Assembly: GCF_988243305.1 (NCBI RefSeq)
Contig: NZ_OZ547136.1
Strand: one strand, 5' to 3'
DNA length: 64,000 nucleotides
Each line of letters begins with the position of its first letter. Within the stretch, counting starts at the first letter, position 1. The notes beneath the pieces were generated by a model that had not been told where the DNA came from, did not search any database, and saw only the letters and a list, made by a program, of their open reading frames with translations. A program made the translations under genes and the position numbers. Shown here one piece after another: positions 3,733 to 9,035 of this stretch.

Positions 3733-4094
3733 ACATCCCGGTTTCTTCCACCATCGCACCGGAAAAGCAACTATGAGGGTAACCCTGCGTCTGTCAGCAC
3801 AGTAAAACCCGGTGTGCATCGTTTTTGATTATTCCCGCACACTCACGCAGAAGGAATTCCCCGTCGGGCTACGGTCATGGTTAATGCGGGAATACGGCGA
3901 CGATACAGCGCAGCTAAAAGGGTAATGGACAGAAAGAGCGGTTTATTTCATTCCACAGGATTCTGAGTGTCCCCAACTTCCTCCAATAGTCTGAGCGTAC
4001 ACCTATATAGTTTTAATTTTCATCAATCCATTTAACTATCGTTTAATTGTTGTCACATAGGATTCCGCCGTTTTTAACAATGCAGGATAATAAG

Positions 4095-4388
4095 ATGAAA
4101 AAAATGTTGTTTTCTGCCGCTCTGGCAATGCTTATTACAGGATGTGCTCAACAGACGTTTACTGTTGGAAACAAACCGACAGCAGTAACACCAAAGGAAA
4201 CCATCACCCATCACTTCTTCGTTTCGGGAATTGGACAGGAGAAAACTGTTGATGCAGCCAAAATTTGTGGCGGCGCAGAAAATGTTGTTAAAACAGAAAC
4301 CCAGCAAACATTCGTAAATGGATTGCTCGGTTTTATTACTTTAGGCATTTATACTCCGCTGGAAGCGCGTGTGTATTGCTCACAATAA
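4095..4388 (+). CDS. bor: Bor lipoprotein (serum-resistance lipoprotein of lambdoid phages)
   Basis: 97-aa product from internal ATG with SD aggataataag: MKKMLFSAALAMLITGCAQQTFTV..., lipobox LITGC; matches lambda Bor. Confidence 0.9.
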   Translation: MKKMLFSAALAMLITGCAQQTFTVGNKPTAVTPKETITHHFFVSGIGQEKTVDAAKICGGAENVVKTETQQTFVNGLLGFITLGIYTPLEARVYCSQ

Positions 4389-4419: not shown

Positions 4420-4881
4420 CTATCTGCACTGCTCATTAATATACTTCTGGGTTCCTTCCAGTTGTTTTTGCATAGTGATCAGCCTCTCTCTGAGGGTGAA
4501 ATAATCCCGTTCAGCGGTGTCTGCCAGTCGGGGGGAGGCTGCATTATCCACGCCGGAGGCGGTGGTGGCTTCACGCACTGACTGACAGACTGCTTTGATG
4601 TGCAACCGACGACGACCAGCGGCAACATCATCACGCAGAGCATCATTTTCAGCTTTCGCATTAGCTAACTCCTTCGTGTATTTTTCATCCAGTGCAGCAA
4701 CATCACGCTGGCGCATCTGCATGTCAGTAATTGCCGCGTTCGCCAGCTTCAGTTCTCTGGCATTTTTGTCGCGCTGGGCTTTGTAGGTAATGGCGTTATC
4801 ACGGTAATGATTAACAGCCCATGACAGGCAGACGATGATGCAGATAACCAGAGCGGAGATAATCGCGGTTACTCTGTTCAT
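4420..4881 (-). CDS. Rz: i-spanin Rz
   Basis: [50 protein letters not shown]... matches lambda Rz; start overlaps endolysin stop (ATGA). Confidence 0.9.
4479..4661 (-). CDS. Rz1: o-spanin Rz1 lipoprotein, embedded in +1 frame of Rz
   Basis: 60-aa [63 protein letters not shown], proline-rich lipoprotein nested in Rz as in lambda. Confidence 0.85.
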
Positions 4882-5375
4882 TGCTGACCCCACAAACAGA
4901 TTTCACGCTCAATCTCACGACGAGTCATGAGACCTTTCCATTGCTTACCGCCAGCATATGTCCAGCGACGTAGCTGATCACATGCGCCTTTGATATCGCC
5001 CTGGTTTATTTTGCGAAGAAGCGTCGATGTTCTGAAATTGCCAGCGCCCACGTTGTAAACGAACGAGTAAAGAGCGCCGCGCGTTGTTTCCGGTATATCA
5101 ACTTTGATGTACGGGTTAATTTGTCTGGCGACCGTGGCAAGGTCTTTATTCAGGAGGGCTTTGCATTCTGCTTTGGTATACGTTTTACCGAGCATGATGT
5201 CTTTTCCTGTATGCCCGTGACATACAGTCCATACACCAACAATATCTTTGTATGGTATGTAGCTGACACCTTCCAGACCATCGTTACCACTTGGGCCAGT
5301 AATTAACACTGATGCTATAGCAATTGCTCCGCCACCAATAGCAGCAGCAACGGCTTTTCGTAATGATGGAGGCAT
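4878..5375 (-). CDS. Endolysin (T4-lysozyme-like with N-terminal signal-anchor-release segment, phage 21 / DLP12 RrrD type)
   Basis: 165-aa [62 protein letters not shown]...; hydrophobic Gly/Ala-rich N-terminus then lysozyme-like domain. Confidence 0.85.
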
Positions 5376-5590
5376 TATTCACCTCTCGCAGCCTTGCGCT
5401 TATCTTCTTTAATCTTGAAATAAAGGTTTGTCAGGTACGTCAGCAGGCCAAATACCAGGCTACCCAGCACACCTATTGCTGCCCACTGTGAGGGCGTGAC
5501 TTTATCGAGCAGCTGTAAAAACCAGTAGCCAGCACTGCCTGCGGAGGTGCCGTAGGCAATGCCTGTTGAAATTTTGTCCATGGATTTCAT
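5375..5590 (-). CDS. Class II holin (pinholin, S21 type) with dual-start motif
   Basis: 71-aa product [71 protein letters not shown]; two TM segments, Met1/Met4 dual start; track ORF extends upstream from a non-ATG start. Confidence 0.85.
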
Positions 5591-5692
5591 AGCCTCACCT
5601 CCGCACGGAACGGATGGCATAGTTATTATGTGTAGGCTTTCAGACACATCAATCAGAGCCTTAATTGATATATATGCTGGAGACGATGCAAT

Positions 5693-5716
5693 ATAAAAAG
5701 CTCGCCATAGCGAGCT
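5693..5716 (-). terminator. Rho-independent terminator candidate between the TolA-like cargo genes and the holin gene
   Basis: Inverted repeat agctcgc/gcgagct with 4-nt loop, followed on minus strand by a T-run. Confidence 0.45.
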
Positions 5717-5841: not shown

Positions 5842-6237
5842 CTAACCTCGCATGTCAAAGCCAGATTTCTGAAAATCTCTGTAGACTTCCGGATTGTTGA
5901 AGGCCGGAAATTTGGCTTTATGAGCTGCGGACTTTATCGCTTCGCAATAGGCTTTATCACCGTTACTGGTAGATATTTTTAACGCCGTGCCATCCTGAGA
6001 GAATTCCATATGCAACCTGCATTTTTTCCCTTTCCAGTTATGCGGCTCATCAAGTTTGGCATTAATTGCAGCTCTGATTCCCCGCGCTTGCGCCCCCCAT
6101 TCATCCTGATCATCCCAGCGTCCTGAACTGCAACTACCTGTAGCAGTAGTTTTGTGGCAATCTGAAGGGTGTAAAGGTGTGCATCCCGCAACAAAACCGA
6201 CCCAAAAAGTCAACATAACGATTTTCTTTAATCCCAC
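5842..6237 (-). CDS. Lipoprotein with TolA C-terminal (domain III)-like fold, diverged copy
   Basis: 131-aa ORF with lipobox FVAGC; C-terminal ...KGKKCRLHMEFSQDGTALKISTSNGDKAYCEAIKSAAHKAKFPAFNNPEVYRDFQKSGFDMRG aligns with the TolA C-terminal domain; non-ATG start with strong SD (gaggag). Confidence 0.65.
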   Translation of the reverse strand: MGLKKIVMLTFWVGFVAGCTPLHPSDCHKTTATGSCSSGRWDDQDEWGAQARGIRAAINAKLDEPHNWKGKKCRLHMEFSQDGTALKISTSNGDKAYCEAIKSAAHKAKFPAFNNPEVYRDFQKSGFDMRG

Positions 6238-6387
6238 TTCTTGCTCCTCAATCCATTAAAATCTCAGCAATAGTAGTTGTTACGTCCGCCACTGGCTCAG
6301 AGCTGACTATCCGCTAAATTTAGCTCAGTGCCGTAGCTGTGTCAGAACAAACCTAAGCCGAAACCGTTTATTACAAAACAATAAATA

Positions 6388-6816
6388 TCAGGGTTTAAAA
6401 TCCAGCACCCCATTTTGAAATACTTTATATACTTCCGGCGAAGGGGGGGCAGGTATATCAGCATTCTTTATCGCATTCATCGCTTCACGACATAAATCGA
6501 GGTCTCCACTTTCTCTTTTAACCTCCAGTAGAAGGCCATTCGGGGCCATATGCATTCTCAGTGTACACTCTTTTCCTGAATACTTACTCGCATCCCCGAA
6601 CTGTTTTTCGATGGCGCTCTTGATTTGATGGGCATACAGACGGATATTCTCACTAACATCAGAAGTACGTTCAGATGAACTCACATACTGTGTCTCTATT
6701 GCTTTATCGGAGTAATATGATGTACGGTCATGATAATTTGTCGATACAGCATCAGTGCACCCGATAATAATCCCACTAATAATCAACGTAAGAATTGATG
6801 CGCTACGAAAACCCAT
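6388..6816 (-). CDS. Lipoprotein with TolA C-terminal (domain III)-like domain
   Basis: 142-aa ORF with lipobox IIGC; C-terminal YAHQIKSAIEKQFGDASKYSGKECTLRMHMAPNGLLLEVKRESGDLDLCREAMNAIKNADIPAPPSPEVYKVFQNGVLDFKP closely parallels E. coli TolA C-terminus (recalled ...YAGQIKSAIESKFYDASSYAGKTCTLRIKLAPDGMLLDIKPEGGDPALCQAALAAAKLAKIPKPPSQAVYEVFKNAPLDFKP); SD gtgaggaaaa. Confidence 0.75.
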   Translation of the reverse strand: MGFRSASILTLIISGIIIGCTDAVSTNYHDRTSYYSDKAIETQYVSSSERTSDVSENIRLYAHQIKSAIEKQFGDASKYSGKECTLRMHMAPNGLLLEVKRESGDLDLCREAMNAIKNADIPAPPSPEVYKVFQNGVLDFKP

Positions 6817-6845: not shown

Positions 6846-6875
6846 ATTATATATACCGTTGTTTTGGACGCTCAA
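6846..6875 (-). promoter_or_regulatory. Candidate sigma70 promoter for the TolA-like cargo genes
   Basis: Minus strand TTGAGC, ~17-18 bp spacer, TATAAT-like hexamer ~30 bp upstream of the 6816 start codon. Confidence 0.3.
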
Positions 6876-7349
6876 ACAGCGAATCAGATCAAATAAAACG
6901 CACATTTGTTAACATTTACACAAAGTCTGCGTGGGATATTCTGAAAGAATATCCATAATGTGGAGAGAATCTATTGAAGTGCATGGTGCCGGGTGCCTCC
7001 CGGTGAATTCAGTACCAGCACCTGAATCCGCGATTATCCCATATACCTACTCGCTGATTGCCCCTCCGCACAGGGGGATTCACCATGCCAGTTTCTTTTA
7101 ACAAACTCCCCGCAAACCAGAGAACAGTCAACCGCCTGAATTGTGAAGTATTTAAAAATTTCTCCCGCTAACTGATACCCGGCTAACAGTCTGGCGTTTT
7201 CTTTTTCAGCAACGGGAAAGCAACAACCACCACACCCGCCACCAGCACACCGTCAGCCAGCACTGACATTATCCGGCTGCTGCAATGCCATTCACAAAAA
7301 CAGTAAGCAATCACTTTTTACCGTAACAGGTGATAATCCAGATATGTAT

Positions 7350-7813: not shown

Positions 7814-7890
7814 TGGCGCGCTGTACTGGATTCGAACCAGTAACCGATTGCTTAGAAGGCAATTGCTCTGTCCGGCTGAGCTAACAACGC
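7814..7890 (-). tRNA. tRNA-Arg (anticodon UCU)
   Basis: Reverse complement gcgttgttagctcagccggacagagcaattgccttctaagcaatcggttactggttcgaatccagtacagcgcgcca folds as cloverleaf: 7-bp acceptor stem, anticodon loop cttctaa, T-loop ttcgaat, CCA end. Confidence 0.9.
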
Positions 7891-7994: not shown

Positions 7995-8070
7995 TGGTGG
8001 CCCTTGCTGGATTTGAACCAGCGACCTGGCGATTATGAGTCGCTCGCTCTCACCACTGAGCTAAAGGGCC
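7995..8070 (-). tRNA. tRNA with CAU anticodon (Ile2/lysidine type or Met), resembling phage ileZ
   Basis: Reverse complement ggccctttagctcagtggtgagagcgagcgactcataatcgccaggtcgctggttcaaatccagcaagggccacca; perfect 7-bp acceptor stem, anticodon loop ctcataa, CCA end. Confidence 0.9.
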
Positions 8071-8105: not shown

Positions 8106-8133
8106 CAATAAAAAACCCGCTCGGCGGCGGGTT
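8106..8133 (-). terminator. tR'-like rho-independent terminator downstream of the late promoter
   Basis: Hairpin aacccgc/gcgggtt with 6-nt loop, followed on minus strand by TTTTTATT. Confidence 0.6.
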
Positions 8134-8213: not shown

Positions 8214-9035
8214 TTACCTAGTTACCTTTTTTAACTGCCGCTCAGCCCATCCTTCTTCAATATCAAACCGGGTCACCAGCGCATCATAGAATTTCTTAAC
8301 TGTTTTTTCCCATGACGCGCGTGTTATCTGGTTTGTCACCTCGCATATAGCATTAAATGCCTCCGTTGATGGTAGTCTTTCATAGCCACGACCACCACAA
8401 CGCTGGCAGTCTCTGATAACAGGCATACCACGTTTTACCGACTCTTCACGGTGAATGGCGACACCACGCCCACGGCAATCCTTACAGGCGGTGGAAACCT
8501 CACCCTTTCCGCCACACTCCGGACAGGCAACTTTTACCACCTCCCTGACTTTTTTCCATTCTTCCCAGTAAGACGGATACACACCTTTCGTACACTTTGC
8601 CCATACCGGCGGCTTACCATCCGGATACTGGACCTTGTTTGTAAAAACTACGCTTTCAATAAATTTTTCCCCATAGCAACAAGGGCACTGCTTTTTACTC
8701 GCTGCGCTGCGGGCATAATCCTCAAAAGCGTACGAAGCCATAATGCGCATCACTACCGGTTTTATTTCTGCCGGAAGTTTTCTCAACGCCGCCACACGAT
8801 CGCACCGACTGAGTGCATAATCTGCCAGTAATTCTGTTGCCCGCGCCCTGTCATTCATACTGATGCCCATTTTCCCCAGGAACGCAGAAAACCCCATCTC
8901 AGCCCGATTCTGTGTCATGCCCTGCGCGGCCATCACATCAGTGATACTCAGCGCATCTTTTGACGTTGAGGCCGATGCATCGGTCAGGCAAGGGGATTTT
9001 GGGGAGTAGTATTTCGGTAAATCTTCCAGTTTCAT
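8214..9035 (-). CDS. Late-gene antiterminator Q (Cys-rich, Qin QuuQ / phage 82 type)
   Basis: 273-aa ORF MKLEDLPKYYSPKSPCLTDAS...CPCCYGE...CPECGGKGEVSTACKDCRGRG...; position immediately upstream of pR'/tR' and lysis genes. Confidence 0.7.
   Translation of the reverse strand: MKLEDLPKYYSPKSPCLTDASASTSKDALSITDVMAAQGMTQNRAEMGFSAFLGKMGISMNDRARATELLADYALSRCDRVAALRKLPAEIKPVVMRIMASYAFEDYARSAASKKQCPCCYGEKFIESVVFTNKVQYPDGKPPVWAKCTKGVYPSYWEEWKKVREVVKVACPECGGKGEVSTACKDCRGRGVAIHREESVKRGMPVIRDCQRCGGRGYERLPSTEAFNAICEVTNQITRASWEKTVKKFYDALVTRFDIEEGWAERQLKKVTR

Follow-up and report, generated by a model that had tools for sequence, protein, structure and literature searches.

Colicins and filamentous phages need the tip of TolA for cell entry. 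TolA itself, a protein of ~400 amino acids (aa) whose gene lies in the tolQRA-tolB-pal cluster, consists of a membrane anchor that couples it to TolQR, a long helical domain II, and domain III (TolAIII, residues ~325-421 in Escherichia coli; Protein Data Bank (PDB) entries 1TOL, 2X9A, 3QDP/3QDR and 1S62). Strand β3 of TolA gains an additional strand from colicin N, from the N1 domain of the filamentous-phage protein g3p (g3p-N1) or from the N-terminus of TolB, and TolAIII binds these three with affinities of ~1 µM, ~12 µM and 40 µM, respectively (PMC4339652; PMC7391070). The substitutions D418P or K420P in TolA abolish all three β3 interactions and give a tol phenotype (PMC4339652; PMC7391070), and loss of TolA-TolB binding by itself leads to the full tol phenotype (PMC4339652). 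Colicin A uses the opposite edge of TolAIII, at residues 375-380, together with K368, K379 and K396 (PMC3365938). Here, we describe a locus in a 64,000-nucleotide stretch of contig NZ_OZ547136.1 (NCBI RefSeq assembly GCF_988243305.1), the whole of which we call the window. In it, the late region of an mEp460-like lambdoid prophage carries two genes, A and B, for small lipoproteins that have TolA domain III and neither the anchor nor domain II, and that are encoded between the Q gene with its tRNA genes and the holin gene rather than in a tol cluster. We propose, with a probability of roughly 0.45, that A and B act as uncoupled, outer-membrane-tethered TolA decoys that render the lysogen tolerant to colicins and filamentous phages.

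The C-terminal parts of both proteins are TolA domain III. The Pfam model PF06519 matches A with an E value of 4.9e-23 over model positions 4-96 of 96 and B with 1.5e-14 over positions 10-92 of 96, and phmmer comparison with the solved E. coli TolAIII gives E values of 2.1e-27 and 5.2e-9. Measured against residues 335-421 of E. coli TolA, the identity is 59% for A and 31-34% for B; between A and B it is 29%. The AlphaFold2 (AF2) model of A has a predicted local distance difference test score (pLDDT) above 95 for residues 48-142 and of 49-59 for residues 1-47, and that of B exceeds 90 for residues 46-131, with low confidence in the N-terminal module. The best PDB match found by Foldseek is 2x9a_B for A, with a root-mean-square deviation of 0.6 Å and a template modelling (TM) score of 0.96, and 3qdp for B (1.1 Å, TM 0.92). 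Along with the fold, both proteins share with E. coli TolAIII the disulfide pair C363-C388 (E. coli numbering), and both Cys residues are invariant in an alignment of 72 sequences. An earlier, sequence-only reading of this DNA had described two tandem, diverged lipoprotein genes whose C-terminal parts align with TolA's C-terminal domain, and had suggested a profile search and a structural superposition as checks. Its open reading frames (ORFs) and lipoboxes proved to be exact, the profile and phmmer matches lie far above chance, and the two models superpose on TolAIII at the deviations given above.

Membership in the domain family does not extend to the protein family. Against models of full-length TolA, A and B cover profile positions 294-386 of 387 only, and both fall below the NF007065 cut-off of 213 bits (106 for A, 54 for B). 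For TIGR02794, with a cut-off of 59.45, A reaches 75.1 through domain III only, which accounts for its RefSeq name, 'cell envelope integrity protein TolA'; we regard this name, given to gene A in NZ_CP030331.1 (8689-9117), as an over-annotation, and A and B as members of the TolA C-terminal domain family, not of the TolA protein family. The TolA homology of the pair is nonetheless already visible in public annotation, and PHROG 5772, listed as 'unknown function', covers the proteins. When the domain of A was used alone as a query, no closer full-length TolA was found that could have been its donor, and tblastn revealed no third TolAIII copy in the window.

Each domain is preceded by a lipoprotein signal with a charged n-region, a hydrophobic h-region and a lipobox of the form [LVI][ASTVI][GAS]-C, the contexts in the translations being ..SGIIIG-C20-TD in A and ..GFVAG-C19-TP in B. 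Shine-Dalgarno sequences stand ahead of both genes, GAGGA 4 nt before the ATG of A and GAGGAG 6 nt before the GTG of B. In RefSeq, B begins at an internal ATG and loses the charged n-region; the GTG at 6237 is most likely the true start, since it has GAGGAG 6 nt upstream and yields an n-region with KK. Because Thr, and no Asp, occupies position +2, both proteins are predicted to be sorted to the outer membrane by the Lol rule. TolA is anchored in the inner membrane, whereas A and B would thus be anchored by lipid, probably in the outer membrane. Between lipobox and domain, A has a poorly conserved tether of ~35 residues. B instead has a Cys-x8-Cys module and an acidic, Trp-containing stretch that are conserved across genera.

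In the alignment of A, L417-D418-F419-K420-P421 is identical to TolA, and F412, E381 and A391 are also kept. At the colicin A site K379 and K396 are retained, LLEVKR replaces LLDIKP and H replaces K368. Because the L417-P421 strand and the other site residues are kept, A very probably binds what TolAIII binds. The sequence-only reading had put forward a decoy against colicins and Ff phage, or interference with Tol-Pal, as possible functions; for A, a decoy role is a reasonable reading.

We envisage A and B as a self-contained moron in the lambdoid late region. The short tether would hold TolA domain III in the outer periplasm, and, with domains I and II missing, the proteins would be uncoupled from the TolQR motor. 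They could then serve as dominant-negative coreceptor decoys. Emerging beneath the outer membrane, the epitopes with which group A colicins (A, N, and probably E1 and K) bind TolA, and likewise the N1 domain of filamentous-phage g3p, would be caught there. A ligand captured in this way would be held unproductively and kept from the energised TolA of the inner membrane, so that the lysogen would be tolerant. Since the affinity of TolAIII is higher for colicin N and g3p than for TolB, decoys at a moderate level could protect without a collapse of Tol-Pal. As a faithful copy of TolAIII, A would be the stronger decoy candidate of the two; B would be an older, diverged relative with a module of its own, and its targets may be different ones, such as bacteriocins from other Enterobacterales. 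For A and B, we infer that they reach the outer membrane, bind these ligands, are expressed in this lysogen and protect it.

The signals around the two genes are consistent with such a moron. A promoter-like sequence, TTGAGC-18-TATAAT, matches the consensus at 10 of 12 positions and ends ~30 nt before the start codon of A, and a -10-like (G/T)ATAAT is similarly spaced in four diverged A-type loci whose upstream sequences otherwise differ. The hairpin at 5716..5699, followed by a U-run, has a predicted stability of -11.2 kcal/mol (z -3.8), which none of 200 shuffled sequences reached. The 150-nt spacer between A and B has no significant structure (z -0.8), so an internal terminator there was ruled out and A and B are read as one transcription unit. 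Candidates for the promoter and terminator that the sequence-only reading had supposed for this locus are present at the level of consensus matches. The GC content is 0.36-0.48 in the cassette and ~0.50 in Q and the Rz/lysozyme genes; a composition unlike that of the neighbours and the occurrence of A-type genes in differing phage backbones are both traits of a moron. Taken together, the signals fit a moron that could be transcribed alone in the lysogen and, late, by Q-modified polymerase. A ciprofloxacin-induced gene of prophage CP-933O, EDL933_2012, loosely linked with 'TolA' in a transcriptome paper, is a tail fibre protein in the table of that paper and was not used as evidence of expression.

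A search with the 1.3-kb cassette, requiring at least 80% of the query to be covered, found it in 772 of 5426 complete E. coli genomes; at an identity of 99% or above there are 783 matching records. It also occurs in phage mEp460_ev081 and, by single-protein scans, in dozens of IMG/VR contigs. (The mEp460_ev081 record labels a 216-nt ORF at the holin position, 3892-4107, 'Phage tail fiber protein'.) A survey of other prophages, as proposed in the earlier reading, shows that A-type variants recur in other lambdoid prophages: at 65-68% identity and without B, they follow differing Q genes and the same tRNAs. Shiga-toxin phages carry stx in this same slot between Q and the holin. The likeness to that slot, which the earlier reading had drawn, is borne out by a related prophage contig (L113) in which an A-type gene sits exactly where stx2 lies, the order being tRNAs, A-type gene, STnc100-like element, AsxR, NanS-p-type esterase and holin. 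AsxR, the anti-stx2 small RNA (sRNA; Rfam RF02703), is found there at 4811-4863 on the minus strand, scoring at the gathering score; the contig has no stx, and the A-type gene stands in place of stx2AB.

B-type genes have travelled further. They occur on 611 plasmid records, where they are at least 99% identical to one another. In many I-complex conjugative plasmids, the gene is inserted between nikB and trbC, directly 3' of nikB. R64, the prototype of IncI1, has nikB abutting trbC and no B-type gene, and for this reason we rejected the possibility of an IncI backbone gene and regard the B-type gene of the I-complex plasmids as an accessory insertion. The non-conjugative virulence plasmid pO157 of enterohaemorrhagic E. 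coli (EHEC) has a B-type gene (6001-6432 in the locus from the pO157-type plasmid NZ_CP028701.1) beside a 657-aa nikB remnant. Its product, 'uncharacterized protein L7092' (143 aa, 16,108 Da, lipobox VAGC31|A), is 88% identical to B in amino acid sequence. Shotgun proteomics detected L7092 in the lipoprotein-enriched fraction of EHEC strain 86-24 (PMC3210124, Table 1), which means that this homologue of B is produced in culture. In Enterobacter, the B-type gene is a single-copy chromosomal orphan between the genes for glutathione peroxidase and a RidA-family protein, an ordinary neighbourhood, and in Serratia marcescens it is a chromosomal gene between nrdDG and a GmrSD-N/HEPN pair that resembles a defence module. 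Because the plasmid and chromosomal copies have no lysis genes nearby, the function of B-type proteins appears to be independent of phage lysis, which supports a decoy role. We also count in its favour that B-type genes occur on I-complex plasmids, whose pili are used by filamentous phages. The moron traits of the cassette, the lipoboxes lacking Asp at +2, the detection of L7092 as a protein and purifying selection, with a pairwise ratio of nonsynonymous to synonymous substitution rates (dN/dS) of 0.06-0.26 in the domains, count for it as well. A wider proposal, which we hold as possible but more doubtful, is that mobile elements of Enterobacterales (lambdoid prophages, I-complex plasmids and pO157) spread an immunity by 'coreceptor mimicry': it would confer broad tolerance to Tol-dependent bacteriocins and filamentous phages without a cognate immunity protein, tandem copies would have different ligand ranges, and the plasmid copy would offset the liability to filamentous phages that comes with the pilus.

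Several observations weigh against A and B being decoys. The C-terminal strand of B reads FDMRG in place of LDFKP, and the colicin A contacts of B are gone (K368E, K396H, and ALKIST for LLDIKP), so that on the alignment the binding of E. coli TolA ligands by B cannot be assumed. The conserved chromosomal copy in Enterobacter hints at a housekeeping role in the envelope. With the altered strand, the lost colicin A site, the extra Cys module and this Enterobacter copy, the decoy reading appears weaker for B. Nor does a plain decoy account for two diverged copies in tandem, except where each has its own range of ligands. If a decoy also bound the TolB N-terminus, Tol-Pal could suffer, at a cost to the cell. 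The promoter of the cassette is a consensus match only. The models of the defence-system collection PADLOC gave no match at E values up to 1, and full-text literature searches found no functional study of prophage or plasmid TolAIII lipoproteins; several apparent matches concerned the surname 'Tolar' or the chromosomal tolA gene. We note, too, that the stretch SGRWDDQDEWG of B loosely resembles the epitope through which colicin E9 binds TolB (DGSGW...NPWG); were the resemblance real, B could contact both the TolB propeller and the TolB N-terminus. It was set aside as probably superficial, because helix 1 of the domain contains the second Trp and more distant relatives lack the motif.

The exact TolB-binding strand of A also opens an unlikely alternative, in which the pair modulates Tol-Pal. 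A tethered TolAIII would bind the TolB N-terminus and damp the Tol-Pal cycle, raising vesiculation or the fragility of the outer membrane. Because Q-driven late transcription reads through the cassette, this could aid the release of progeny or cargo at lysis; alternatively, it could trigger Rcs or capsule responses in the lysogen that alter its susceptibility to phages. Loss of TolA-TolB binding suffices for the full tol phenotype (PMC4339652), a 2020 review holds that vesicle production could be regulated via TolB interactions (PMC7391070), and the cassette is part of the late operon, with holin, lysozyme and spanin immediately downstream. However, the plasmid and chromosomal homologues are unlinked to lysis genes, and the cassette has promoter-like and terminator signals of its own. 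The TolA-TolB affinity of 40 µM is low, such that strong interference would need a high copy number, and cells with a constitutive tol phenotype would pay a price, yet 14% of complete E. coli genomes carry the locus in identical form.

We consider it similarly improbable that the proteins have an envelope function of their own, with B-type, and perhaps A-type, proteins reusing the TolAIII/TonB-like fold as a strand-augmentation module for another partner and serving as general fitness genes. The extra N-terminal Cys-x8-Cys module of B is strongly conserved, with a dN/dS of 0.08-0.14, and the predicted ligand surface of B has diverged; the stable orphan chromosomal gene of Enterobacter fits as well. 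Among 1.84 billion representative proteins we found 130 relatives, 69 of them 100-170 aa long; a lipobox is present in 51 of these 69, and Asp is absent from position +2 in all 51. With so many lipoboxes, the short TolAIII lipoproteins form what, by sequence, is a broad, old, diverse and uncharacterised class, as a general envelope role would have it. No partner is known, however, and A, with 59% identity and the same β3 strand, is too near to TolAIII not to bind its ligands. Repeated capture by prophages, I-complex plasmids and pO157, together with the defence-like neighbourhood in Serratia, looks more like an accessory or conflict-type gene.

The location of B-type genes next to the nikAB relaxase genes, directly past nikB in I-complex plasmids and beside the nikB remnant of pO157, points to a role in plasmid or phage transfer, either as entry exclusion or as an aid in moving DNA across the envelope. 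It is nevertheless very unlikely: R64 conjugates normally without a B-type gene, chromosomes and the non-conjugative pO157 retain the gene, an I-complex transposon-screen paper does not name it among the conjugation genes of its main text, as far as this was searched, and the prophage copy has no transfer genes nearby. That A and B have no function and are carried along as the decaying remains of a captured tolA 3' end is scarcely credible, because, although A plainly derives from the 3' end of tolA and even bears the RefSeq name 'TolA', the ORFs are intact with good ribosome-binding sites and acquired lipoprotein signal peptides, the sequence is 100% identical over hundreds of genomes while other prophages carry diverged intact variants, the pO157 homologue has been detected as a protein (PMC3210124), and dN/dS lies well below 1 (for A, 0.26 in the domain and 0.50 in the tether; for B, 0.06-0.11), which indicates purifying selection on both A-type and B-type genes.

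The features of the locus are collected in Table 1. On the minus strand, the order is Q, two tRNAs, the DUF3927 ORF, the STnc100-like element, A, B, holin, lysozyme and Rz/Rz1. PHROG matches and RefSeq annotation of the neighbours bear out the placement of the pair between the tRNAs and the holin that the sequence-only reading had given.

Table 1. Positions in the window of genes A and B, their parts, and the surrounding features of the prophage late region
Feature	Position	Strand	Description
Gene A	6388..6816	-	142-aa lipoprotein with TolA domain III; ATG start; stop codon included
Gene A signal peptide and lipobox	6757..6816	-	MGFRSASILTLIISGIIIG-C20; +2 Thr, +3 Asp; from translation
Gene A tether	6652..6756	-	~35 residues, predicted disordered
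Gene A TolAIII domain	6391..6651	-	Residues 56-142; alignments, AF2
Gene B	5842..6237	-	131-aa lipoprotein with diverged TolA domain III; GTG start
Gene B signal peptide and lipobox	6181..6237	-	MGLKKIVMLTFWVGFVAG-C19; +2 Thr; from translation
Gene B N-terminal module	6106..6180	-	Residues 20-44; Cys-x8-Cys loop and acidic SGRWDDQDEW
Gene B TolAIII domain	5845..6105	-	Residues 45-131; alignments, AF2
Promoter-like site	6846..6875	-	TTGAGC-18-TATAAT; consensus scan, 10/12
Terminator-like hairpin	5699..5716	-	GCUCGC-UAUG-GCGAGC, then UUUUUAUAUU; between B and holin
STnc100-like RNA/repeat element	6927..7117	-	Rfam RF02076, 114 bits against a gathering score of 47
Q antiterminator	8214..9035	-	phrog_127/25523; RefSeq 'antitermination protein'; start of late operon
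Terminator-like hairpin after Q	8133..8114	-	
tRNA genes	7995..8070 and 7814..7890	-	
DUF3927-family ORF	7183..7314	-	43 aa, membrane; RefSeq name
ORF of 117 aa	7350..7703	-	TTG start; phrog_2873 (unknown function), E 6e-70
Holin	5375..5647	-	phrog_20/9876; RefSeq essD; first lysis gene past the cassette
Lysozyme	4878..5375	-	Followed by Rz/Rz1
Bor/Iss lipoprotein gene	4047..4388	+	Opposite strand to the late operon

Some of the neighbours deserve comment. The STnc100-like element, of ~200 nt, borders the cassette on its upstream side. STnc100-like copies, one to five each, flank A-type genes in other lambdoid prophages, at 4599-4807 in L113, at 4536-4748 and 6508-7487 in contig L119, and at 4599-5062 in contig L131; L119 has four copies that are nearly adjacent. 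In the cargo slot, the element may serve as a repeated boundary or for recombination, instead of or besides being an sRNA gene. The DUF3927 ORF matches phrog_1470 (E 8e-13), which carries the label 'TciB-like inhibition of cell division or resistance to colicin'. A label that mentions colicin is suggestive so close to TolA-domain genes; its source could not be traced in the literature, where only unrelated 'TciB' acronyms were found. The 117-aa ORF, a candidate gene between the tRNAs and the DUF3927 ORF, is unannotated in the RefSeq genome record NZ_CP030331.1. The tRNA at 7995..8070 is called Met (anticodon CAT) by ARAGORN and tRNA-Ile in RefSeq, and is presumably a lysidine-modified, ileZ-type tRNA like those of Stx phages.

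E. coli is often naturally insensitive to colicins, for reasons that are understood only in part, and this restricts what colicins and engineered bacteriocins can achieve as narrow-spectrum antimicrobials. If A and B are TolA decoys, they would constitute a transferable tolerance factor that is independent of immunity proteins, with a cassette in about one seventh of complete E. coli genomes and relatives on pO157 and many resistance plasmids. They would also represent a new principle of prophage exclusion, the imitation of a periplasmic coreceptor in place of the blocking of a surface receptor, and would offer Tol-Pal research natural dominant-negative probes of the TolA-TolB step. Should the pair instead tune Tol-Pal, it would matter for how lysogens produce vesicles and release toxin.

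Known systems resemble A and B to different degrees. A precedent for the mechanism proposed here is the free TolA C-terminal domain, which, exported to the periplasm of wild-type E. coli, reportedly brought about both tolerance to group A colicins and periplasmic leakage (Levengood-Freyermuth, Click and Webster, 1993, J Bacteriol 175:222). That construct was made in the laboratory, soluble and overproduced, whereas A and B are natural, tethered by lipid and borne by a mobile element. L7092 and the ORF between nikB and trbC have the same lipobox and domain as B, but they are uncharacterised single genes on plasmids, with no A-type partner. The Bor/Iss moron of this same prophage is likewise a small lipoprotein carried as cargo beside the lysis genes and changes the surface properties of the host, but its fold and its function, serum resistance, are unrelated, and it is transcribed against the late operon. 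Similar in logic to what we propose are Cor (phi80, N15, HK022) and Llp (T5), small phage-encoded outer-membrane lipoproteins that bring about exclusion at the envelope; a sequence relation between them and A or B is not expected. Cor and Llp block the host receptor FhuA and so act on FhuA-dependent phages, whereas A and B would mimic a host coreceptor and soak up the ligand of the invader, with Tol-dependent colicins and filamentous phages as the proposed targets.

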